Below, piece by piece: positions 20,823-64,000 of a stretch of DNA of 64,000 nt. The DNA is from an uncultured Candidatus Saccharibacteria bacterium. Its GTDB lineage: Bacteria > Patescibacteriota > UBA1384 > JAGGWG01 > CAZAJM01. Position numbers and translations under genes: made by a program. A model generated the notes under the pieces. That model worked only from the letters and a program-made list of their open reading frames with translations. It was not told the origin of the DNA and searched no databases. The stretch covers positions 29,803-93,802 of the forward strand of contig CAZAJM010000001.1 in the NCBI GenBank assembly GCA_964485625.1, in the 5' to 3' direction. Position 1 is the first letter of the stretch; every line of letters begins with the position of its first letter.

Positions 20823-20930
20823 TTGTTCAAATCCATCCAGATTAAACACAGTAAAAAAGTATACTCCACAAGGGAGTAATTTTTCTACGGACTCTACCGT
20901 ATAAACTTCTAACTTTGGTGTTTGGGATTT
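20823..20930. repeat. 3'-flanking module copy 1 (~110 nt), paralogous to 22204-22313. Contains the conserved box GGACTCTACCGTATAAACTT(C/T)TAACTTT(G/A)GTGTTTGGG and a hairpin terminator.
   Basis: Compared by eye: ttgttcaaat(c/t)c...cagat(t/c)aaacac...ggactctaccgtataaactt...gtgtttggg(a/g)ttt is shared between the regions downstream of the minus-strand genes at 20970 and 22379. Confidence 0.7.
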
Positions 20931-20969
20931 GAGTAAAGAAAAAAATCGCTATAAACTTAAAATCATAAT

Positions 20970-21563
20970 TTATTCTTTGGGATATAACGATTTGAACACT
21001 ATTACGTCTCTAGTGTAACAGTGGTGGCAACCTGCCTGTATTTTTCCCTCTATCATTTCTGCTACTAAACGAAGTTCTCTAACCGCTCTTTCAATTTCAT
21101 AGTCAAACAAGGCGATGGAAATATTTGGGTCTCCATCATGCATGGTCCCGGGAGTCGGAATATTCAGGAAATAATCATACCTAATAAACTGCCTCTGTGC
21201 AGCAAATTCTCCGCCATACCTGTCGATTAGCCAACTGCCATAATGTTCTTTATTCCATCTGATTATGTCTTCATCTGATACTTCCATAAATAGTTCTGGA
21301 CAAAAAGCAATAGCGAGTTCTTCAGGCGTCATTTCGACTACTCCATTTACTTGAGAAATTGGAGAGTGTTGGATATCCCAATCAACAATGTATCCGGGGT
21401 GATGAGTGGGCTGGTCATCTCTAGAATGCTGAATCCTCAACCTTGCAGCGTTAGAAGCTATATTTATTGAACCAACGTCTGAGCTTTTAACCATTAATTT
21501 ATCCCCGTGATTGTGGAACCAGTCAGGTCCTAAACCAGACATTATCGGCTTTTTAAGATACAT
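20970..21563 (-). CDS. Hypothetical protein (orphan X1) in the tRNA-Asp-adjacent islet
   Basis: 197-aa ORF with its own promoter/RBS (GGTGAGGTGAAAAG-ATG). His/Cys-containing (HHPGY, CHHC). No recognisable family. Confidence 0.5.
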   Translation of the reverse strand: MYLKKPIMSGLGPDWFHNHGDKLMVKSSDVGSINIASNAARLRIQHSRDDQPTHHPGYIVDWDIQHSPISQVNGVVEMTPEELAIAFCPELFMEVSDEDIIRWNKEHYGSWLIDRYGGEFAAQRQFIRYDYFLNIPTPGTMHDGDPNISIALFDYEIERAVRELRLVAEMIEGKIQAGCHHCYTRDVIVFKSLYPKE

Positions 21564-21604
21564 CTTTTCACCTCACAAGGTGCAAGAGTGTTCACTCATT
21601 AAAT

Positions 21605-21658
21605 ATATTAAACTAACCTTTAGTTTTAATCAAATAAAAAACCACCTTTTCGGGTGGC
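21605..21658 (-). promoter_or_regulatory. Terminator-promoter module upstream of X1: minus-strand hairpin GCCACCCGAAAAGGTGG+T-run, then TTGATT-N17-TAATAT
   Basis: Read on the minus strand. -35 is at 21633-21628, -10 at 21610-21605, and the hairpin at 21658-21636. A paralogous module sits upstream of X2. Confidence 0.55.
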
Positions 21659-22063
21659 AATGTTCAAAGTAGAATTCAGGCTAATTAATTACTCTAAATA
21701 GTTTTTAAGAAGCTTAGTTATTGTTCTCCTACCCCATCCGCTCTTGAGGTATTTTTCTCTACTCTTGGCATCTTTCTTATTTAAAAAGACCTCGTAATAG
21801 ATTAATTTAAGAGGTCTTTTATGTTTGGTTTAGTTTGAATTTCCTTTTCTATGGCTCTCTATCCTCTTTTTAAGTTTAGTCGAGTAGCCAATATATAAGC
21901 TATTGTCTTTCTTGCTTTGTAATATATAGACGTAATACATATTTAAACACGTTCGCGTAATAAATCTTAGATTTACACGCGACACGCCACGTTTAATTTT
22001 TTATTGTCTAAAAATTATTACGTGGCGGGGCTTGCCGGAATTTCACTGTCCCCATAGGGCTTC

Positions 22064-22105
22064 CCCGCCTGCCATCGCCTGCGGCTTAGCCAATGGCGGG
22101 CACGG
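22064..22105. repeat. GC-rich miniature repeat, copy A (CCCCGCCTGCCATCGCCTGCGGCTTAGCCAATGGCGGGCACGG)
   Basis: Member of the CCTGCCCGCC...GGCAGGCGGG family seen at five sites. Sits in an otherwise AT-rich intergenic region. A perfect GC palindrome CTCCCGCCGTGGCGGGAG lies at about 22163-22182. Confidence 0.6.
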
Positions 22106-22203
22106 CGCCCTCTGGCCTTCTCTTTTTGATAATATCAAAAAATAGATAGGTCACCCTCCCGCCGTGGCGGGAGAAAACATTGTGTTTTCCCGACCCCTTT
22201 CCT

Positions 22204-22313
22204 TGTTCAAATTCGCCCAGATCAAACACTGCCAAAATAAAACCGCCCTTAAAAGGGCGAACTTATTCTGGCGGACTCTACCGTATAAACTTTTAACTTT
22301 AGTGTTTGGGGTT
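22204..22313. repeat. 3'-flanking module copy 2 (paralogue of 20823-20930), including a minus-strand intrinsic terminator (hairpin 22244-22259 plus T-run)
   Basis: Same conserved box ggactctaccgtataaactt and flanks as copy 1. Hairpin CGCCC-TTAAAA-GGGCG flanked by an A/T run. Confidence 0.7.
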
Positions 22314-22378
22314 TAATAAAAAAGACCAGAAAAGACTCGGGAGAGGCCTAACTGGCCTTTAAGTTCTGGAGACTAGTG

Positions 22379-22939
22379 TTAGGAGGATTGCAGGCATTTT
22401 TTCTGAACATTATCAAAAAGGATAAACTGAAAGCCTTCAATTTCCCTAACGGGGAGAATGCTTTTAGACCGAAGTTGACTGATATGCTCCATATGTTCGG
22501 CGATGGGGCAGGACAGAGGGGAGCTATATCCTTCTAAAATACACATTCCATACTCACCACTGCCATCTTGGGTCTCGTTACCACAGATATATTCTTGTCT
22601 GCTGCTCTGGCTGAGTCTTTCACATTCTGGAAGTTCAATTATGGTATTTGAGTCATCTATCCGTAGTGCTTTGCTTTCAGGTAATTCTCCCCCTGTGTTT
22701 GCTCCGTCCCATTCGCTTTGGAAAGTACTAATAACATCTTCAGGCCTGTTTGCTTCGACTATACAGTGAGTTCTTTTTCTAGCAATCAGTGCCCTTCTGA
22801 TATTACTTGGGTCTAGCTCCTCTTTGTTGTCATATTTCACGAACAAGCCTACATTGTCTACAGCTATAATGATTTCATGAAAGCCATTAGTCCCAACTCT
22901 TGCAGATCTTTTCCATAAAGGCACTTGATAGAGTGGCAT
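22379..22939 (-). CDS. Hypothetical protein (orphan X2) in the tRNA-Asp-adjacent islet
   Basis: 186-aa ORF with an AGGAGG RBS and a strong upstream promoter. Cys-rich C-terminal half. No recognisable family. Not similar to X1 despite shared flanks. Confidence 0.5.
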   Translation of the reverse strand: MPLYQVPLWKRSARVGTNGFHEIIIAVDNVGLFVKYDNKEELDPSNIRRALIARKRTHCIVEANRPEDVISTFQSEWDGANTGGELPESKALRIDDSNTIIELPECERLSQSSRQEYICGNETQDGSGEYGMCILEGYSSPLSCPIAEHMEHISQLRSKSILPVREIEGFQFILFDNVQKKCLQSS

Positions 22940-22979
22940 GAGATATCTCCTCCTAATTTTGTGGTAGGTGCGTGAATTG

Positions 22980-23034
22980 ATGATAAATTAAACTTTAATT
23001 ATTTTCAACCTAAAAACCACCTTTTCAGGTGGCT
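22980..23034 (-). promoter_or_regulatory. Terminator-promoter module upstream of X2: minus-strand hairpin GCCACCTGAAAAGGTGG+T-run, then TTGAAA-N17-TATCAT
   Basis: -35 at 23008-23003, -10 at 22985-22980, hairpin at 23034-23013. Paralogous to the module at 21605-21658. Confidence 0.6.
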
Positions 23035-23056
23035 AGGGTAGAGTATAACTAAACTT

Positions 23057-23130
23057 CGGGGCTGACCGGATTTGAACCGGCGGTCTCCTGCGTGACAGGC
23101 AGGCGCTTTAAACCACTAAGCTACAGCCCC
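23057..23130 (-). tRNA. tRNA-Asp (anticodon GTC)
   Basis: Minus-strand sequence GGGGCTGTAGCTTAGTGGTTTAAAGCGCCTGCCTGTCACGCAGGAGACCGCCGGTTCAAATCCGGTCAGCCCCG folds as a cloverleaf. Anticodon loop is CTGTCAC. No encoded CCA. Confidence 0.85.
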
Positions 23131-23156
23131 AAAAATAAATTGTTAAAATTGATAAA

Positions 23157-23325
23157 CCCCATGTTCTCCAAGCCTCTTTAAGGATCTGAACCGGCTTGGT
23201 CTGTCCGGTGGACACCGGACCGCTTTAAACCACCCCGCCTGCCAAAGACTAAAGCTGGTGACCTGCCCGCTAGTGCCTGAGCACAGCAATGGCAGGCGGG
23301 TGGCGGGCAGGTAAGCTACAGCCCC
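23157..23325 (-). pseudogene. Degenerate tRNA-Asp-like copy interrupted in the D-loop by a 78-nt GC-rich repeat element (23234-23311)
   Basis: The minus strand begins GGGGCTGTAGCTTA (identical to the tRNA-Asp 5' end), then the 78-nt insert, then GTGGTTTAAAGCG (identical D-loop). It then diverges into a degenerate anticodon/T-arm (anticodon loop TGTCCAC lacks U33), and the acceptor 3' strand is not complementary. Confidence 0.55.
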
Positions 23326-23385
23326 ATACAATCAGATATAAGAAAAAGATACCACAGAATATCTCTTTTTTCAACCTCTAATAAT

Positions 23386-25299
23386 CTAATAGTTCTTTTT
23401 GAGGAGCTTATCAAGTTCAATTTCTGCAACACCAATTACCTTATCTGCTCCTCCGTAATATATTAATACCTTATCGTCTTTAAGTATTTTGCCACAAGGG
23501 AATACAACATTATTTACAAACCCTTCTTTTTCCCAATTTTCCGTTGGCTCGAGTATGGGATATTTACTTCTGTAGATTACTTCCTCTGGTCTTTCTAGGT
23601 CTAAGAGTAAGGTTCCCACCCTATACTGACCATCTTTACTACTAACACCATGATAGAGTACTAGCCAGCCTTTTTTGGTTTTTAGTGGGGTAGTGTTGAT
23701 GCCAATCTTCTTATCATCCCACATGCCTGCTCTAGGACCAATCATACCTTCTTTCTCTAACCACTCATTATCTTCAAATATTAGGTCGTCTAAGTAGTCT
23801 ATAGCGACCTCTCTACCTCCCACCCGGTGGAAGAGCAAGTATCTACCATTAATTTTTTCCGGGAAGAGACAGGCATCTTTATCGTCTGTGTTAGGGGGAG
23901 AGACTATTTTTGGCTCTGACCAGTTCCAATTCTTGCTATAGAAATCTTTTGTTTTAATATAGCTCATCGCTACTCTGGGTGGATTGACTCCATCAAAGGC
24001 AGTGTAGAGGAGGTAATATCTATCTCCAATTTTAGTAATTCTGGGATCTTCACAGCCTGAGAAGCAGTTTGGTTTTTTCTTCTTCTCAAAATCGGCTCTT
24101 GGAGTGTAGATTGGCTGATCGTATCTTTTAAAATTGTAACCGTCATTGCTAGTTGCCAGGCCAATAGTTGAGGTGTTGTTCTTTGAGAATGCCCGATAGA
24201 GCATATAGGTGGTGCCTTCATGTTCAACTGCGGCTGGGTTAAAGACTGCTTCAGCCTCCCAGTCATTTGTCTCTAATGGTTTTAGGATTGGGTTATGTTG
24301 GTACTTTTTTACCTTGAGTGCTTTTTTGACCTGGTTGTTTTTCATCTCTCGGAGTAGCTTCTCCACCCTTATACTCGCCCTAGCACAGTGGGTATCGGCA
24401 GCGCCATAGTAGATATCTATTGAACTATTGTTCTTGATTGCTCCACTTGGGAAGACGACATTTTTAATTACCCCCTCTCTTTCGTAGGGTTCTTCTGGCA
24501 GTAGGAGAGGATTGTCTGTTCGGGAGATTATCTTTTTAGGATTATTTTTATCTAATAAGACCGCTTCTATGCCAAATATTCGATCGTCGTGGTAGTAGTT
24601 TTTAATATGAGAGTAGATTAGTAGCCAGCCTTGTTCTAGCTCAATTGGCCTGGCTCCAATCTCTGTTTGATCGCTATTTAATCTTTTTAGATTGAGGGTC
24701 TTTTTATCTAAATTTTGATACCACTTCTGCCAAAGATCTTGATCCCACATCTCCTCAATTGTTTCAAAGCTTCTTAAGGCAGTTTTTGACGGAGGTAAGT
24801 CTGTGTTGGCTGAGAGGATAGATAAATATTTGCCATTCACTTTTTCTGGGAATAGCGTCATCGCCTTGGCGTTGAAGGGAGTTACTAGATGTTTCTCCTC
24901 AACTGTTTTTAGGTCTTTTGAGATTGCTAGACCAACTTTGATGCTATCTGGCCTGGGTGGCCAGGCAGAGAGAGCGGTATAGAAAATATAGTATTTGCTA
25001 TCTATTTTAGTGACTCTAGGGTCTTCACAGCCAAATAGGTCCCAGTTGGTGCTGGGAGCAATTAGTTGCATTGGAGTACTAAATTTTTTGCCGTCTTTGC
25101 TTCTGGTTATGCCAATAGTGGAGAGAGATAATTTCTGACCCTGAACCTCTATCTCATTTGAAAGAGCTCTAAAAAGAAGAACTGTTTTGTCATCTTTTTC
25201 TATAGCGCTAGGATTAAAAGTAGCTTGGGCCTGCCAAGCATCTTCTGGGTTAGGTGAGATTAGCGGATTGTTTTTACTTTTTTTTGCTAGGTTTGTCAT
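23386..25299 (-). CDS. Tandem two-domain GH130-like glycoside phosphorylase (beta-mannoside-phosphorylase family 5-bladed beta-propeller)
   Basis: Two copies of the GH130 core (FNPSAIEKDDKTVLLFRA...GITRSKDG and FNPAAVEHEGTTYMLYRA...GLATSNDG, each followed by CEDPR). 637 aa. Confidence 0.75.
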   Translation of the reverse strand: MTNLAKKSKNNPLISPNPEDAWQAQATFNPSAIEKDDKTVLLFRALSNEIEVQGQKLSLSTIGITRSKDGKKFSTPMQLIAPSTNWDLFGCEDPRVTKIDSKYYIFYTALSAWPPRPDSIKVGLAISKDLKTVEEKHLVTPFNAKAMTLFPEKVNGKYLSILSANTDLPPSKTALRSFETIEEMWDQDLWQKWYQNLDKKTLNLKRLNSDQTEIGARPIELEQGWLLIYSHIKNYYHDDRIFGIEAVLLDKNNPKKIISRTDNPLLLPEEPYEREGVIKNVVFPSGAIKNNSSIDIYYGAADTHCARASIRVEKLLREMKNNQVKKALKVKKYQHNPILKPLETNDWEAEAVFNPAAVEHEGTTYMLYRAFSKNNTSTIGLATSNDGYNFKRYDQPIYTPRADFEKKKKPNCFSGCEDPRITKIGDRYYLLYTAFDGVNPPRVAMSYIKTKDFYSKNWNWSEPKIVSPPNTDDKDACLFPEKINGRYLLFHRVGGREVAIDYLDDLIFEDNEWLEKEGMIGPRAGMWDDKKIGINTTPLKTKKGWLVLYHGVSSKDGQYRVGTLLLDLERPEEVIYRSKYPILEPTENWEKEGFVNNVVFPCGKILKDDKVLIYYGGADKVIGVAEIELDKLLKKNY

Positions 25300-30945: not shown

Positions 30946-30992
30946 GCCCTCCACCTATCATCGTCTGCGGCTTCAGTTGTTGGCAGGCGGGG
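30946..30992. repeat. GC-rich miniature repeat, copy C (degenerate left arm; ...CATCGTCTGCGGCTTCAGTTGTTGGCAGGCGGGG)
   Basis: The core GCGGCTTCAGT(T/C)GTTGGCAGGCGGG is nearly identical to copy E at 53845-53886. Confidence 0.55.
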
Positions 30993-51171: not shown

Positions 51172-51241
51172 GGTATTCGGAAGTCCGACCCGCCTGCCAA
51201 AGACTGAAGCTTTGCTGATGGCGGGCAGGCTTCCGAATATT
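51172..51241. repeat. GC-rich miniature repeat, copy D, nested inside the hairpin arms ATTCGGAAG...CTTCCGAAT
   Basis: attcggaagtccgacCCGCCTGCCaaagactgaagctttgctgaTGGCGGGCAGGcttccgaat. The core is the reverse-complement orientation of copy E. Confidence 0.6.
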
Positions 51242-51282
51242 ATTAATGATTTAATAGTAATTTATCAGGTTGTGTACAAAAT

Positions 51283-51309
51283 CGGAAGTCCGACTTCCGA
51301 TTTTAGGAA
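51283..51309. terminator. Perfect 13-bp-stem palindrome AAAATCGGAAGTC-CGA-GACTTCCGATTTT just 3' of uvrA; probable bidirectional intrinsic terminator and core-less relative of repeat D
   Basis: Inverted repeat read directly from the sequence. A/T runs on both sides. Confidence 0.6.
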
Positions 51310-53833: not shown

Positions 53834-53900
53834 AAATCGGAAGGCCTGCCCGCCATTGCCTACGGCTTCAGTCGTTGGCAGGCGGGTTACCTTCAGAATT
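53834..53900. repeat. GC-rich miniature repeat, copy E (CCTGCCCGCCATTGCCTACGGCTTCAGTCGTTGGCAGGCGGG at 53845-53886), flanked by TCGGAAGG/CCTTCAGA partial inverted arms
   Basis: Sits in the 45-nt uvrB-uvrA intergenic spacer. Termini CCTGCCCGCC/GGCAGGCGGG. Confidence 0.6.
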
Positions 53901-55748
53901 GGTTTTTTTAGTTAATTCTTCTAAGTCTATTAAAGGTTTAATATCTTTTTTTATTGTTTTCGGTTTTTTGCCGTGTTTACGGTTGTACTCCAGTTGGATC
54001 TTTCTTCTTCTATTTACCTCATCGATCGCTCTTTTCATAGAACCGGTTACCTTATCAGCATAAAGTATCACTCGGCCTTTAATATTTCTAGCTGCCCGGC
54101 CCATAGTCTGAATAAATGAGGTCTCGGAACGTAGAAAGCCCTCTTGGTCTGCCTCCAGAATTGCGACTAGAGAGACTTCGGGTAAATCTAAGCCCTCTCT
54201 AAGCAGATTAACTCCGACTAAGACATTAAATTGGCCCTCTCTAAACTCAGTTAATATCTCCGAGCGCTCCACTGTGCCTGTATCGGAGTGCATGAACTTA
54301 GATTTAATGCCGTTTTCGTTAAAATAGCTTGAAAGCTCCTCGGCATTTTTCTTAGTAAGAGCGTTGACTAAGACCCGTTCTTCTCTATTTATCACCTTTG
54401 CAATTTCTTTCTCTAGATCATCAATTTGAGAGGTATCGGTCTTTTTATTGTAAACTTTCTTAATCTCAATCTCTGGATCAACTAGATAGGTTGGTCTGAT
54501 TATCTGCTGGGCAATAACAGAAGATTTTGTTCTCTCATAGTCAGATGGTGTAGCTGAAGTATAGATTATTTGGTCAACTCTCTCGTCAAATTCAGAAAAG
54601 TTTAATGGTCTATTGTCTATAGCTGAGGGCAGTCGCCAGCCATGATTGATTAGAGTTTTCTTTCTGGCCTGATCTCCTCGGTACATACCCTTGATTTGAG
54701 GCACGGCAATATGGGACTCATCGATAATAGTAAGAAAGTCCGGTTTGCCGTTTTCGTCTTTGGGGAAATATGATATCAGGGTTTCCGGCGGTTGACCCGG
54801 TAGTTGTCCGGTGAGGTGGCGGGAGTAGTTTTCTATGCCGTTACAGTAGCCAACCGATTTGATCATCGCTAGATCATTCTTAACTACTCTTTCCAGTCTC
54901 TCTGCAGCTAAATATTTATTGTTATCTTTAAAATACTTAAGCCGCTCGTCTAGTTCTTGGCGGATTGTTTTAGCTGCCTCCTCAATATCTTCTTCTTTGC
55001 GAATAAAGTGCTTGGCCGGAAAGATAACCAATTGATCCATCTCCTCAATTGTTGATCTGGTTGTCTTATCAACTACTGAAAGCCTGGCAATTTTCTGGTC
55101 TTTTAGTTCTATTCGATAGGCAAGATCTTTGCTGGGTGGGACAATCTCAATTACATCTCCTCGAGCTCTAAACTTGCCTCGATCCAGATCGAAGCTATTT
55201 CGCTCATATTGCAGTTTGATTAGTTGATTAATGAGATCGCTGCGAGTAATTACATCTCCTAGGTTTAAGTATATTGCTTGTTCAAAATAGTCTGTCGGCA
55301 CCCCCAAGTTATATATACAGGAGACACTGGCAACGACGATCACATCGCTGCGAGTCTGTAAGGCCTCTGTTGCTTCGTGACGAAACTTCTCTATCTCCTC
55401 ATTGATGCTAGCCTCTTTTTGAATGTAGGTATCAGTCGTTGGCAGGTAGGCTTCCGGCTGATAGTAATCGTAGTAGGAGACAAAGAACGCCACCTTGTTA
55501 TCGGGAAAGTAGTTCTTATACTCCCGATAGAGCTGAGCTGCCAGCACTTTGTTTGGCGAGATAACCAATGTAGGTCTATTAATCTTCTCAATTAAATTGG
55601 CAACGCTAAAAGTCTTGCCACTACCGGTTACTCCCAGAAGGGTCATCTTCTCAGCTCCAGATCGGTAGCCTTTTAAAAGCTTTTTAATCGCCTTGGGCTG
55701 GTCTCCGGTCGGAGAGTATTTTGATGAAAGTTTGAATTTATTTGCCAT
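53868..55748 (-). CDS. uvrB: Excinuclease ABC subunit B
   Basis: GVTGSGKT Walker A, helicase motifs, and a C-terminal UVR region. 626 aa. Confidence 0.95.
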   Translation of the reverse strand: MANKFKLSSKYSPTGDQPKAIKKLLKGYRSGAEKMTLLGVTGSGKTFSVANLIEKINRPTLVISPNKVLAAQLYREYKNYFPDNKVAFFVSYYDYYQPEAYLPTTDTYIQKEASINEEIEKFRHEATEALQTRSDVIVVASVSCIYNLGVPTDYFEQAIYLNLGDVITRSDLINQLIKLQYERNSFDLDRGKFRARGDVIEIVPPSKDLAYRIELKDQKIARLSVVDKTTRSTIEEMDQLVIFPAKHFIRKEEDIEEAAKTIRQELDERLKYFKDNNKYLAAERLERVVKNDLAMIKSVGYCNGIENYSRHLTGQLPGQPPETLISYFPKDENGKPDFLTIIDESHIAVPQIKGMYRGDQARKKTLINHGWRLPSAIDNRPLNFSEFDERVDQIIYTSATPSDYERTKSSVIAQQIIRPTYLVDPEIEIKKVYNKKTDTSQIDDLEKEIAKVINREERVLVNALTKKNAEELSSYFNENGIKSKFMHSDTGTVERSEILTEFREGQFNVLVGVNLLREGLDLPEVSLVAILEADQEGFLRSETSFIQTMGRAARNIKGRVILYADKVTGSMKRAIDEVNRRRKIQLEYNRKHGKKPKTIKKDIKPLIDLEELTKKTNSEGNPPAND

Positions 55749-58231: not shown

Positions 58232-59068
58232 ATGTCTGAACAGACAAAAGTCGTTGTCCTCAACGAGGCCCCCCATAATAGGATAGAGAAGGGCCTTGCC
58301 TGCTTGGCCAATGCTGGGGTAACCAGTGACCATTGGCAGCAGGCCACCATCGATGACCCGATCGCCCGAAGGTGTGTCGCCTCAGCTCTCAAGGGCGAGG
58401 TAGCTACTCCAATCACTCAAGACGATTGGTTGGAGCGTGAGGCTGAGATCCTCAGCCAGATCTGCGATAGTGGGAAGGGCTCAGGCATGTTCAGTGTCGA
58501 GTCCCTCCGTCCCGCACTGAACCGGGCAGTTGAGGAATGGGGAGAACCCACTGAGCACTGGCGGGTAATCCCCGGTGCCTACACCCTCCCCGACTTGTTC
58601 GAGATTCTCTACCGCTTGGAAGACAAGTGGCAGGAGGATCACAGCGGCAAGAGCTTCCTCTGCGGGAGGCGCAAAGAGGAGTGGTGGCGGACCAGTGACA
58701 CGTACCAGCCTATCGCCACTGAGCTTGGTGTCATGGTCTGCAACCTCGAGACCTGCGCTAACCCGACTGATCTGGACGGTGCCCCCTACTACCTCAACCG
58801 TGAGGAGCAGGAGGCCTGGGTCAAGACCCAGGGAGCGGAGGAAATGATGAGCGCTGAAGAGGTTATCTACCTCTTCATCCGCTCTATTATGGGGCTAAGC
58901 CGCCCTCTCTGGCCTGCCGGTACCATGCGCTGCCGAAACAACACCGGTTCGGGCGGCTCGCTCAGCGTCTATTGGCACGCGCGCGATGGCTTGAGCGTCA
59001 GCGGCTGGCACGATGTTGGTCCGAGTTGGTGCATCGGTGCTCTCCCCCGGAAGTTGGTTTTGGCCTAG
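58232..59068 (+). CDS. DGR variable (target) protein with a C-terminal VR in a CLec/FGE-like fold; strongly GC-rich gene
   Basis: The C-terminal ~36 codons are the VR. The whole ORF is about 55-58% GC against ~38% flanks. GGAGG RBS. No signal peptide or TM. The VR-encoded tail ...GSGGSLSVYWHARDGLSVSGWHDVGPSWCIGALPRK. Confidence 0.8.
   Translation: MSEQTKVVVLNEAPHNRIEKGLACLANAGVTSDHWQQATIDDPIARRCVASALKGEVATPITQDDWLEREAEILSQICDSGKGSGMFSVESLRPALNRAVEEWGEPTEHWRVIPGAYTLPDLFEILYRLEDKWQEDHSGKSFLCGRRKEEWWRTSDTYQPIATELGVMVCNLETCANPTDLDGAPYYLNREEQEAWVKTQGAEEMMSAEEVIYLFIRSIMGLSRPLWPAGTMRCRNNTGSGGSLSVYWHARDGLSVSGWHDVGPSWCIGALPRKLVLA
58945..59053 (+). repeat. DGR variable repeat (VR), 109 nt
   Basis: Identical to the TR at 59417-59525 at all 92 non-mismatched positions. 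All 17 mismatches fall where the TR has A (VR has G/C/T). A GC palindrome GGCCTAGGCC (59062-59071) lies immediately 3'. Confidence 0.85.
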
Positions 59069-59416
59069 GCCCTTGGGGTCTGGGATCTATTGGGTGTTAG
59101 CTCTTGGTTTTTCCGCTCTGCGGATCACCTTGGACTAACGCCCATCTTTTTTTAAATAAAAATATGGTAGAATATAGTTAAGATAGCAATGAATTGGAGT
59201 TTACGGATTCCAATCGCTATCTTCCTGATCTCTTGGAGACAGAGTCCTTAATTTGAATCTGAATTAAGGGGAGTTTTTAAAAAGGGATTAGAGACTTCTT
59301 ACTGTCTGTTTGGCAGGGTTTTGGTAGCTTGAATACTTGCCACATAAAATACAGGGAGGAGTAGCCTTATTTGAGGTCTCAACTCCTGGTGGTTGCAGAG
59401 GACAGATAGTAAATTA

Positions 59417-59525
59417 CGGTTCGGGCAACTCGCTCAACGTCAATTGGAACGCGAACGATGGCTTGAACGTCAACAACTGGCACGATGATGATCCGAATTG
59501 GAACATCGGTGCTCTCCCCCGGAAG
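59417..59525 (+). repeat. DGR template repeat (TR), 109 nt, rich in AAC codons
   Basis: cggttcgggcAActcgctcaAcgtcAattggAacgcgAAcgatggcttgaAcgtcaAcAActggcacgatgAtgAtccgaAttggAAcatcggtgctctcccccggaag. Capitals mark TR adenines substituted in the VR. Confidence 0.85.
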
Positions 59526-59544
59526 TCTCTATTTCTTTTGGAAT

Positions 59545-59892
59545 TTATCTGACAGACCTTATCCAACCTCCCAACATTTTGCCAATCTCTTGGAGCATTT
59601 CTTCCAGAGCTAAATATCTTTTAGTCGGAATTGCCTTAATTTCCTCTCCCATTCTAAGAAGAACTTTTAAAAGATCTAATTTAATACTGGCTTTTTTCAA
59701 GTATTTTAACTTTGTTTCTCTATGAGAATTGTTGCTAGCAGTAATTAAGTATTCCATAATCTCTAATGTAATGTCATCTGTTTTTTGCCCTAGGGTGTAT
59801 TTATTTCTTTTTGGCATTTTTTCAACTACAAACATTAATTCTCGATAGAAATTGTAAGTTTTGGTAACAATAGGAGCTTCTTGATTGCTCAT
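59545..59892 (-). CDS. avd: DGR accessory variability determinant (Avd), four-helix-bundle family, encoded antisense between TR and RT
   Basis: 115 aa. Resembles 23S-rRNA-IVS/Avd four-helix-bundle proteins (YTLGQKTDD..., KLDLLKVLLRMGEEIKAI, C-terminus EIGKMLGGWIRSVR cf. ...VAKMLSGLIRSR). Its ATG overlaps the RT ATG in the palindrome CATG at 59890-59893. Confidence 0.65.
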   Translation of the reverse strand: MSNQEAPIVTKTYNFYRELMFVVEKMPKRNKYTLGQKTDDITLEIMEYLITASNNSHRETKLKYLKKASIKLDLLKVLLRMGEEIKAIPTKRYLALEEMLQEIGKMLGGWIRSVR

Positions 59893-60880
59893 GGCTAAAC
59901 TAATTAATGATATTACTAGTATTGAAAACTTGTTTTTAAGCTGGAAAAATTTTAGAAAAGGCAAACGCCATAAACCGGATGTGCAGCAGTTCGAACGGTA
60001 CCTTGAAGATAATCTATTCCAACTTCGTCAAGAGTTTAAAACGGGCAGCTACAGACATGGTAATTATATCAGCTTCAATATTACTGACCCAAAATCAAGA
60101 TTGATTCACAAGGCTAAAGTTAGGGATCGAGTAGTACATCACGGAGTATACCGTCAACTTTATCCAATCTTTGATAAAGGCTTTATTTTTGACAGCTACT
60201 CTTGTAGAAATAACAAAGGAACTCATAGGGCGATAAAGAGGTTAAGAAAATTTACTATCAAGGTATCCAAAAACAATATAAGAGTCTGTTGGGCTTTGAA
60301 GCTTGATGTTAAAAAGTTTTTTAATAGTGTAGATCAGCAAATTCTGTTAAAGCTTATCTCTAAGAAAATTAAAGACAGAAAAGCTCTAAGTTTAATTGAT
60401 GAAATAATCGGTAGTTTTTCTGTGGATAAAAAATCTCAGAGAGAGAGAGAGAGAGAGTTAAGGGGTCTGCCGATTGGCAATTTGACTTCTCAACTTTTTG
60501 CAAATATCTACCTAAATCCCTTGGATCAGTTTGTAAAGCATGAGTTAAAAGAAAAATATTATCTTCGTTACTGTGATGACTTTGTTATTCTTAGTAAAGA
60601 CAGAAAGCATCTGATTAAGCGTATTTTTAAGATCGAGAAGTTTTTAAGCAAGAAATTAAAATTAAATTTACATCCTGATAAAATAATTCTAACAAAACTA
60701 AAACAGGGCATAGACTTTTTAGGTTACGTTGTTTTGCCACATTCAATTGTTCTGCGAACTAAAACTAAAAAAAGGATGTTAAATATGATTAACGAGAGTA
60801 ACAAAGACTCGTACTTAGGACTGCTCAAGCATTGTGATAGTTATAAATTGAAACAAAGAATAAGAAGTATTTTTGATTGA
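59891..60880 (+). CDS. DGR reverse transcriptase
   Basis: RT motifs: GLPIGNLTSQLFANIYL (the DGR-specific IGxxxSQ replacing group-II QGxxSP) and YLRYCDDFVIL (YxDD). About 330 aa, the size typical of DGR RTs. The track ORF starts at a TTG at 59885. Confidence 0.9.
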   Translation: MAKLINDITSIENLFLSWKNFRKGKRHKPDVQQFERYLEDNLFQLRQEFKTGSYRHGNYISFNITDPKSRLIHKAKVRDRVVHHGVYRQLYPIFDKGFIFDSYSCRNNKGTHRAIKRLRKFTIKVSKNNIRVCWALKLDVKKFFNSVDQQILLKLISKKIKDRKALSLIDEIIGSFSVDKKSQRERERELRGLPIGNLTSQLFANIYLNPLDQFVKHELKEKYYLRYCDDFVILSKDRKHLIKRIFKIEKFLSKKLKLNLHPDKIILTKLKQGIDFLGYVVLPHSIVLRTKTKKRMLNMINESNKDSYLGLLKHCDSYKLKQRIRSIFD

Positions 60881-63765: not shown

Positions 63766-63839
63766 GCCCTCGTAGCTCAACTGGATAGAGCGCTTGGCTT
63801 CGGACCAGGAGGTTGCAGGTTCGAATCCTGCCGAGGGTA
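63766..63839 (+). tRNA. tRNA-Arg (anticodon TCG)
   Basis: GCCCTCGTAGCTCAACTGGATAGAGCGCTTGGCTTCGGACCAGGAGGTTGCAGGTTCGAATCCTGCCGAGGGTA. Anticodon loop CTTCGGA. No encoded CCA. Confidence 0.8.
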
Positions 63840-64000
63840 CTTACGAGGTAGGTGGAGAACCTGCTGTCTGTCAGATAGAGATAGGTTCGGCTGAAAGCGT
63901 TTCGACTATAGGCAAGCGAAACTTAAACCTAGGCCAATGGAAGAAGGGCTTTAAGCCCATCGAATCCTGCCGAGGGTACTTGCGAGGTAGGTGAAGAACC
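63821..64000 (+). repeat. 41-nt direct repeat (63821-63861 and 63960-64000; 2 mismatches) comprising the last 19 nt of tRNA-Arg plus 22 nt downstream; the second copy reaches the window edge
   Basis: tcgaatcctgccgagggtactt(a/g)cgaggtaggtg(g/a)agaacc occurs twice, 139 nt apart. The sequence preceding the second copy is not tRNA-like. Confidence 0.7.

Follow-up and report, generated by a model that had tools for sequence, protein, structure and literature searches.

Genomes of the candidate phyla radiation (CPR, Patescibacteria) are tiny and usually thought to be poor in mobile DNA. Free-standing GIY-YIG homing genes carry a partial copy of their target that takes the place of the original and leaves a pseudo-fragment displaced, as in the Allomyces atp6 insert and T4 SegB, which lies in a tRNA cluster. 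The very small dispersed repeats SDR4-6 of Nostoc/Anabaena, reportedly described by Elhai and colleagues in Genome Res in 2008, are said to be 21-27 nt long, hairpin-associated, nested and found in tandem heptamers; to our knowledge they cause no target duplication, and we know of no enzyme for them. Other mobile hairpin elements are the organelle mobile GC clusters, double-hairpin elements, palindromic repeats (for Volvox, see PMC2670323) and the Rickettsia palindromic elements. The locus compared with these systems here lies in a 64,000-nt stretch of DNA from an uncultured Candidatus Saccharibacteria bacterium (contig CAZAJM010000001.1), termed the window, where a partial copy of the tRNA-Asp gene (the pseudo-copy) stands 5' of the intact gene and is split by a 78-nt GC-rich block. 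On balance, this locus is probably the scar of a tRNA-associated GIY-YIG cassette that was later struck twice by a short hairpin element, termed E, so that two kinds of selfish DNA are recorded there in layers.

A sequence-only reading of the window had noted that the first 14 nt and the D loop of the pseudo-copy are identical to tRNA-Asp, and positions 1-27 indeed match without a mismatch (27/27). The 78-nt block (23311-23234), starting with CCCGCCTGCC and ending with GGCGGGCAGG on the plus strand as that reading had given, sits exactly between tRNA positions 14 and 15, with no junction bases duplicated. It had been taken for one element, and proved instead to be two nested E units, one inside the other (Table 1). 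When the two halves of the outer unit, E2, are joined (23311-23301 and 23261-23234), they yield a 39-nt unit that aligns full-length with the E family. Both halves of the interrupted structure are present in two independent Logan unitigs (L001 and L002; SRR15425350), which abut in the loop of the inner hairpin, E3.

The 64-kb window contains six E units, and E2 and E3 align full-length with the other four. The family has the form CCTGCCCGCCA-N17-20-TGGCAGGCGGG and measures 39-42 nt in the window; its arms pair into a stem of 11 bp in which, on either strand, one T.G pair and one C.A mismatch are fixed, and its loops vary. The arm decamer has seven matches in the window with at most one mismatch, whereas 1.27 were expected and all of 100 shuffles gave fewer than seven. 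Stem-loop junctions of hairpins hold E2 (in the D arm), E3 (in E2), E5 and E6 (both in H2-type hairpins, described below), and the loop of a short hairpin holds E1. Target duplication was seen at none of the five resolved E junction pairs, and none of the E copies in the window bears a GTAG or CGTC end tag. The suggestion that the repeats insert into structured RNA genes stands insofar as a D arm was hit; the target was a non-functional partial copy, and the trait shared by the sites is the hairpin stem-loop junction. A partial E-like 24-mer also occurs within the uvrB coding region (55432-55455).

Evidence independent of the pseudo-copy comes from the uvrB-uvrA-uvrC operon and supports the proposal that the GC-rich repeats are, or formerly were, mobile. 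In the relatives L124 (UvrA 86% identical) and L125 (75%), the three genes abut or overlap. The uvrB/uvrA junction of the window gained CCAATTCTGAAGGTAA-E6-CCTTCCGATTTAG, and UvrB ends with ...SEGNPPAND* inside E6, which supplies the last codons and the stop (53868-53886). The uvrA/uvrC junction gained about 146 nt that hold two hairpins of a second family, H2 (two copies between uvrA and uvrC, 51175-51304, and a variant between uvrB and uvrA). One of the two H2 copies is uninterrupted and serves as a paralogous empty target, and E5 divides the other precisely where the arm meets the loop (ATTCGGAAG-TCCGA / E5 / CTTCCGAAT). The E5 site is empty in both relatives, and E arms are absent from 43 kb of the relatives' loci. 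Because the relatives' uvr genes abut where E5 and E6 sit, E is read as a lineage-specific insertion, and H2, which is missing from the relatives, is read as another. Judged by these alignments, both the nesting of E insertions and the lineage-specific gain of E and H2 are shown. E elements fragment short-read assemblies: contigs of the independent Logan assembly end at three E copies, and the uvrA contig of SRR15425350 (P0121; 2,598 nt) has E5 and E6 at its ends.

Scanning one genome per species with CCTGCCCGCC-N12-42-GGCAGGCGGG recovered at least 118 stretches. At least 77 E-bearing loci have a GC content below 0.53, in excess of chance, as by a rough estimate less than one match would be expected over all the low-GC genomes scanned; matches in high-GC genomes are expected by chance. 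Among the matches listed, the low-GC loci belong to the Saccharibacteria, Nomura-, Doudna- and Jacksonbacteria, SR1 and Omnitrophota, as well as to the Bacteroidota (including cultured Zunongwangia and Niabella), Ignavibacteria, Chlorobi, Desulfobacterota, Planctomycetes, Dehalococcoidia and others, and more than ten phyla share identical arms. Multiple or nested copies occur at several loci. Many loci have E precisely within tandem heptamers (L115, L117, L123 and L068) or inside other hairpin repeats (L009, L072 and L113), and 28 stretches with E arms came from viral contigs. Logos of the E flanks show a purine preference at position -1 and nothing more. In a Bacteroidetes assembly (L045, 100-3300), more than 25 E-arm matches within 8 kb are interleaved with hairpin repeats of the GTCATTCC...GGAAT type, a mosaic suggesting that some genomes host an entire community of nested hairpin elements.

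It is quite improbable that the E units are immobile, that is, structural motifs recruited by the host (protein-binding in the manner of repetitive extragenic palindromic (REP) sequences, or mRNA-stabilising) that arose locally or by gene conversion. Such an origin would agree with the position of all full units between genes or at gene ends, with conserved arms and variable loops, and with the lack of a transposase in the window open reading frames (ORFs) scanned or of one shared among the 77 E loci. It does not account for a unit nested precisely in another unit, for units that sit in H2 hairpins, tandem heptamers and a dead tRNA copy with an exact restoration of the flanks, for the copy that rewrites the uvrB C-terminus, or for identical arms across phyla and in viral contigs.

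Several results weigh against, or limit, the proposed behaviour of E as a mobile element that enters hairpins. Hairpin targets in other phyla are mildly enriched (6% versus 1.75% in the control), and since hairpin flanks are so weakly enriched elsewhere, we restrict the stem-loop-junction rule to this genome. All-against-all ORF clustering of the 77 E-bearing loci gave no common protein family. Of the 62 ORFs in the window that reach 90 amino acids (aa), about 59 were screened against Pfam (a set without the 1,183-, 207- and 263-aa ORFs), and none matched a transposase, Y1_Tnp or integrase family. The RNA fold is not significantly more stable than shuffled sequences (z = -1.7 for the region and -1.9 for the insert). 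A GIY-YIG hidden Markov model (HMM) run over the same 77 loci found only L008, where the gene is not next to a tRNA. Searches of full-text literature with the E arm sequences matched unrelated eukaryotic primers and promoters only, and neither E nor a tRNA-linked GIY-YIG element was found described.

In behaviour, E would most closely resemble the very small dispersed repeats of Nostoc. Like these, as reported, it is below 50 nt, apparently non-autonomous, nested, present in hairpins and tandem heptamers and free of target duplication. E is set apart from them by its 39-42-nt length and by its fixed arms CCTGCCCGCC and GGCAGGCGGG in many non-cyanobacterial phyla. Miniature inverted-repeat transposable elements are far larger and differ from E in its lack of target-site duplication at five junction pairs. 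The organelle GC clusters and Rickettsia elements are likewise GC-rich hairpins in an AT-rich genome that land in RNA genes and at the ends of protein genes; the Rickettsia elements, however, are 100-150 nt long and some yeast GC clusters duplicate their target, and E has other hosts and other sequences. REP sequences and their paired form, REPINs, which are associated with RAYT (Y1 HUH) transposases, share with E the 20-40-nt GC-rich imperfect palindrome, the mostly intergenic location, the high copy number, the inverted pairs and the conserved stem imperfections (PMC3116915; PMC2817692; PMC3733652). In contrast to REP/REPIN, E has no GTAG/CGTC tag and no RAYT in the window ORFs scanned, enters hairpin loops and itself, and does not form spaced doublets; each REP family is specific to a species, and the arms of E do not change from phylum to phylum.

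The part of the pseudo-copy beyond the block had been regarded as a decayed anticodon and T arm. The 3' acceptor strand is indeed gone, as is the 3' T-stem strand, and no CAGCCCC, the acceptor complement of positions 1-7, occurs between the pseudo-copy and the next gene. The anticodon arm, in contrast, is replaced by an 18-nt near-perfect palindrome, P (GTCCGGTGTCCACCGGAC), and the 5' strand of the T arm is kept. Immediately 3' of P, homology to tRNA-Asp resumes with AGACC and then GCCGGTTCAgATCC (13/14) and stops in the T arm at 23182; after GCCGGTTCAGATCC the sequence continues as TTAAAGAGG... Divergence is thus very uneven, with 27/27 bases identical in positions 1-27 and 18/19 in AGACC plus the 5' T-arm strand, and 10/10 anticodon-stem bases changed with pairing still perfect. 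The pseudo-copy is something other than the product of simple decay.

Nearly the same palindrome (pattern GTCCGRTGNNCAYCGGAC; consensus GTCCGRTG-NN-CAYCGGAC) was met again in two loci. A metagenome scan for the P arms and flanks found L159 (GC 0.40). On one strand of this locus, an upstream flank is followed by positions 1-11 of tRNA-His and, in the D loop, by a foreign hairpin of 29 nt; the D arm is then completed, GTCCGGTGTACACCGGAC stands where the anticodon arm would be, and AGACC GCGCG precedes an 88-aa GIY-YIG ORF, after which come a repeat of the upstream flank and the intact tRNA-His. The second locus, L162, was reached through GIY-YIG homology alone, by way of a 54%-identical homologue of the L159 protein, and the palindrome was not used. 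Here the GIY-YIG gene stands between two pseudo-tRNA-Ala copies, and a spacer of 57 nt then leads to tRNA-Ala. In the pseudo-tRNA-Ala, positions 1-26 and 44-53 match the adjacent tRNA-Ala, and in both copies positions 27-43 are GTCCGATG-TC/GA-CATCGGAC. The window, L159 and L162 (twice) therefore share one scar, with P at pseudo-tRNA positions 27-43 and flanks that match the local tRNA; between loci, one compensatory pair differs (G-C versus A-T) and the palindrome is kept. Besides these loci, P was not found in 1.24 Mb of fetched DNA, the pseudo-copy-specific 27-mer had no match in the metagenome scan, and viral scans for P and its flanks gave no match, with two weak, uninformative loci for GIY-YIG relatives. 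By alignment, a decoy, that is, a partial tRNA copy bearing P, is shown to recur beside GIY-YIG genes at three different tRNAs. On the 3' side of the L159 tRNA-His, a 507-aa large serine recombinase ORF (133-1712) overlaps the tRNA end, and the decoy/GIY-YIG module lies on the 5' side; mobile DNA uses both sides of this gene.

A more distant homologue in Moisslbacteria (L168-L177) follows a similar plan without P, with an 11-nt 5' fragment of tRNA-Lys, GC hairpins, the GIY-YIG gene and tRNA-Lys. A GIY-YIG ORF thus lies between a tRNA fragment and an intact tRNA in L159, L162 and L168. The stop codon of the L162 ORF is the T8-A9-G10 TAG of the second pseudo-tRNA-Ala, and that of the L168 ORF is the same TAG of the intact tRNA-Lys. 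Across the GIY-YIG homologues P0241-P0274, a conserved ...IK(M/L/I) is followed by two to four variable residues (FLGL, FLGP, HMPP, KMRP, KMRG, KMGL, ISGC). These tails look like translated 5' acceptor strands of tRNAs that end at the TAG of positions 8-10, as verified on the DNA for L162 and L168.

The 61-nt spacer between the pseudo-copy and tRNA-Asp of the window reads TTAAAGAGGCTTGGAGAAC ATG GGG TTT ATC AAT TTT AAC AAT TTA TTT TTG GGG CTG TAG. Its mini-ORF has a ribosome-binding-site-like stretch upstream and ends as FLGL* at the TAG of the tRNA. The same tail, FLGL*, ends P0243 (L162), P0244 and P0245 end in FLGP*, and a relic in the L162 spacer encodes MIFLGP* after ATTAAAGGAAACCAAGA. 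The GIY-YIG gene of L168 is preceded by ATTAAAGACACT, and the window spacer resembles its 5' untranslated region, ATTAAAGACACTATG. Because the start context and the FLGL* tail match these genes and spacers, we infer that the spacer is a collapsed GIY-YIG gene. A GIY-YIG pseudogene with one in-frame TAA lies 1.1 kb away and ends a 1,377-nt insertion that is placed exactly between the 3' end of tRNA-Asp and the ancestral flank CCTGAATTCTACTT seen in L005; no tRNA remnants were found 5' of this pseudogene.

The proposed history has two layers. In the first, a small GIY-YIG nuclease cassette would once have stood between the promoter and tRNA-Asp. Elsewhere the plan of the cassette appears to be a gene directly 5' of the intact tRNA, whose stop codon is the TAG of the following tRNA copy in two of three cases, and, upstream of the gene, a decoy of the first 53-62 nt of the tRNA with the anticodon arm replaced by P. 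The cassette would have made the window decoy and later lost its ORF, which shrank to the ribosome-binding-site-like stretch, the ATG and 13 codons, leaving the order promoter, decoy(P), 61-nt relic, tRNA-Asp. The pseudo-copy is probably a transcribed leader of tRNA-Asp, because the only promoter-like site ahead of the gene lies upstream of it; as a structured 5' leader, the decoy would now probably be cut off by RNase P. One may speculate that P destroys the recognition site of the nuclease in the decoy and so confers self-immunity. The second layer is largely shown by the alignments: E entered the D loop of the decoy one base 3' of the 5' D-stem strand, and a second E then entered the arm/loop junction of the first, which gives the 78-nt block. 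E is apparently non-autonomous, leaves no target duplication and, in this genome, targets stem-loop junctions of existing hairpins; speculatively, its most likely mover is a nuclease or transposase specific for hairpins of single-stranded DNA.

The first layer draws on three loci with P, one of which was found by searching for P itself, and this counts against it, as do four further points. Small related GIY-YIG genes also occur away from tRNAs (L163-167, L179-182 and L008). Between the pseudo-copy and tRNA-Asp there is no GIY-YIG ORF, and the 13-codon relic is too short for a homology test. A loose alignment also links the spacer to the promoter flank, of which it may be a diverged duplicate. 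Finally, the flanks of P match the local tRNA at each locus, which a simple P-carrying cassette does not explain; possible answers are that P came in a unit inserted at 26/27, or that it is a hairpin that replaced a hairpin.

Without a cassette, the locus could have arisen by plain tandem duplication of tRNA-Asp with neutral decay of the upstream copy, the E insertions being part of that decay. The head-to-tail copies under one promoter and the loose similarity of the spacer to the promoter flank fit such an origin, which we nevertheless consider unlikely, given that decay spared positions 1-27 and the T-arm strand and yet changed every anticodon-stem base while retaining the pairing, and that nearly the same palindrome occurs in pseudo-tRNA-His and pseudo-tRNA-Ala of other organisms.

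Little probability is also given to the interrupted copy being a functional RNA, whether through removal of the D-loop insert at the RNA level or as a tRNA-like leader or decoy with a role in processing, in regulation or as bait for a tRNA-targeting enzyme. The copy probably lies inside the tRNA-Asp transcription unit, the pairing of P is kept by compensatory change between loci, and decoys are retained beside the GIY-YIG genes in L159 and L162. A cloverleaf is nevertheless impossible, because the 3' T-stem and acceptor strands are missing. In the tRNA searches that the sequence-only reading had advised, ARAGORN and Rfam (RF00005) called only the intact tRNA-Asp here; after removal of the 78 nt in silico, the copy was still not called by either program (for ARAGORN, at the default score threshold or at 90% of it). 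At the gathering threshold, Rfam matched nothing but tRNAs in the whole window, and at an E-value threshold (22950-23400 and 21600-22400) it again matched tRNAs only, with no intron family up to E 10. A functional intron-split tRNA, which had been named as the finding that would overturn a decayed copy, is thereby disfavoured, the more so as position 14/15 is not a known intron site and splicing could not rescue a copy that lacks its 3' half. The unremarkable fold stability and the absence of the copy from relatives point the same way. A frameshift-suppressor tRNA with an 8-nt loop (GUGUCCAC, anticodon GUCC) was ruled out because the 3' half is missing and the supposed arm is the palindrome common to the pseudo-His and pseudo-Ala copies. 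A pseudoknot or ribozyme was dropped as well, neither z-score being significant.

Very improbable is the att-site origin offered as an example in the sequence-only reading, an attL/attR-type remnant of an integrase-driven element at tRNA-Asp, for although the tRNA-Asp neighbourhood is variable (with different genes in L003 and L005), a 1,377-nt insertion lies 3' of the window gene and a large serine recombinase ORF stands beside the L159 tRNA-His, the repeat is the 5' two-thirds of the tRNA rather than its 3' portion and stands upstream of the intact gene, separated from it by 51 nt that contain no element body, Pfam matched none of the window ORFs scanned to an integrase or transposase, and the recurrent palindrome at 27-43, shared with pseudo-tRNAs that flank GIY-YIG genes, is foreign to att sites. 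What the locus has in common with att sites and tRNA introns is a tRNA gene as the landing site and an interrupted tRNA sequence; it departs from the former in the duplicated tRNA half and the lack of a recombinase, and from the latter (group I introns of the anticodon loop, archaeal bulge-helix-bulge introns) in an insert of 78 nt at 14/15. An old partial tRNA duplication at a variable islet, also proposed there, holds in outline, as the pseudo-copy is absent 5' of tRNA-Asp in L003/L004 and L005, which have the same GH130 gene pair upstream. For its origin, a GIY-YIG cassette would offer a better explanation than an integrative element.

The GIY-YIG cassette also finds parallels in free-standing GIY-YIG homing genes, where the ORF lies by a partly duplicated target, one copy is functional and one a fragment, and the ORF reads into the target. 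Examples of free-standing homing endonucleases from fungal mitochondria are available (PMC7315562, PMC6506933). The cassette differs in its bacterial tRNA target, the displaced 5' part, the length of about 88 aa, the absence of an evident DNA-binding domain and the palindrome in place of the anticodon arm. Its nuclease activity, homing and self-immunity are putative. A broader reading joins both layers, and we hold it only tentatively and with more doubt than belief: in uncultivated bacteria, genes of about 88 aa of the GIY-YIG family would colonise the 5' sides of tRNAs by duplicating the first two-thirds of the tRNA and would carry or install the 18-nt palindrome, with decoy and P perhaps providing self-immunity to a minimal homing nuclease of tRNA genes, next to a hairpin family of 32-42 nt that crosses phyla; the enzyme of E could then be a structure-specific nuclease such as these GIY-YIG proteins.

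The window has a GC content of about 40%, five called tRNAs, and a gene content that includes ruvABC, uvrABC, cell-envelope genes and a diversity-generating retroelement; the GH130 proteins that flank tRNA-Asp have their best matches in metagenome-assembled genomes of Patescibacteria. The tRNA-Asp sequence is identical in L003/L004 and near-identical in L005, the promoter-like site aligns with the TTGAAA/TTGATA flank 5' of the relatives' tRNA-Asp, and the genes between the GH130 pair and tRNA-Asp differ between L003 and L005. Within 20888-23033, two unrelated ORFs (197 and 186 aa, not paralogues) stand between two pairs of 50-nt repeats, D7 (21609-21658 / 22984-23033, 80%) and D6 (20888-20937 / 22272-22321, 88%). 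The repeats have the look of 5' and 3' untranslated cassettes held in common while the genes inside them were exchanged. A 62-aa ORF that runs over the pseudo-copy and its insert (23143-23331, minus strand) has no Pfam match and is almost certainly an artefact of the GC-rich repeats. The diversity-generating retroelement is complete (58232-60880), and in the core of its repeats all 20 differences are template adenines that read G, C or T in the variable copy. At tRNA-Arg(TCG) (63766-64000), the last ~20 nt and 22 nt of 3' flank are repeated 139 nt downstream with 95% identity (63821-63861 versus 63960-64000, where the end of the window cuts the repeat off); this is a classic case of a tRNA partly duplicated on its 3' side.

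Table 1. Features of the window, with positions counted from its first letter
Feature	Position	Strand	Sequence or remark
Promoter-like site 5' of pseudo-copy	23346..23374	-	TTGAAA, 17 nt, TATCTT, with TG
Pseudo-tRNA-Asp positions 1-14	23312..23325	-	GGGGCTGTAGCTTA; 14/14 identical to tRNA-Asp
E2 (outer), 5' arm	23301..23311	-	CCTGCCCGCCA
E3 (inner), 39 nt	23262..23300	+	CCTGCCCGCTA...TGGCAGGCGGG; at E2 arm/loop junction, opposite orientation
E2 (outer), loop and 3' arm	23234..23261	-	TCACCAGCTTTAGTCTT TGGCAGGCGGG; from alignment
Pseudo-tRNA-Asp positions 15-27	23221..23233	-	GTGGTTTAAAGCG; 13/13 identical to tRNA-Asp
Palindrome P, 18 nt, near-perfect	23203..23220		GTCCGGTG-TC-CACCGGAC; replaces anticodon arm, positions 27-43
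Variable loop AGACC, extra AA, 5' T-stem strand and T loop	23182..23202	-	GCCGGTTCAGATCC
Spacer with ATG and 13-codon mini-ORF	23121..23181	-	TTAAAGAGG...; MGFINFNNLFLGL*; stop is T8-A9-G10 of tRNA-Asp
Intact tRNA-Asp(GTC)	23057..23130 (ends vary by 1: 23056/7-23130/1)	-	ARAGORN and Rfam tRNA, 75.4 bits
Terminator-like hairpin 3' of tRNA-Asp	23015..23034	-	
E1, in GC-rich hairpin region 5' of GIY-YIG pseudogene	22064..22104	-	From alignment
GIY-YIG pseudogene, one in-frame TAA	21689..21940	-	HMM E = 2e-12 and 6.5e-6
E4, decayed 5' arm	30950..30991	+	From alignment
E5, between uvrA and uvrC	51189..51229	-	Splits H2 hairpin at arm/loop junction
H2 hairpin, uninterrupted	51278..51304		AAAATCGGAAG-TCCGA-CTTCCGATTTT; paralogous empty target for E5
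E6, between uvrB and uvrA	53845..53886	+	In hairpin GGAAGG / E6 / TTA-CCTTC
Retroelement target ORF	58232-59068		Variable repeat 58945-59054
Retroelement template repeat	59417-59526		
Retroelement accessory bAvd gene	59545-59964	-	
Retroelement reverse transcriptase	59885-60880		

The conserved palindrome in decoy tRNAs and the cross-phyla hairpin family appear undescribed, and the single ingredients are of known kinds. In this bacterium, two layers of very small selfish elements would have settled both at a tRNA gene that is essential and present in one copy and in the uvrBAC operon, and the E repeats also create spurious ORFs such as the one over the insert. The identical E arms across more than ten phyla, among the matches listed, raise the question of which enzyme recognises them. 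If the module of GIY-YIG gene, decoy tRNA and palindrome is general, it would explain many of the pseudo-tRNA fragments and small GIY-YIG ORFs beside tRNAs in metagenome-assembled genomes, and it would constitute a minimal homing system open to experiment.

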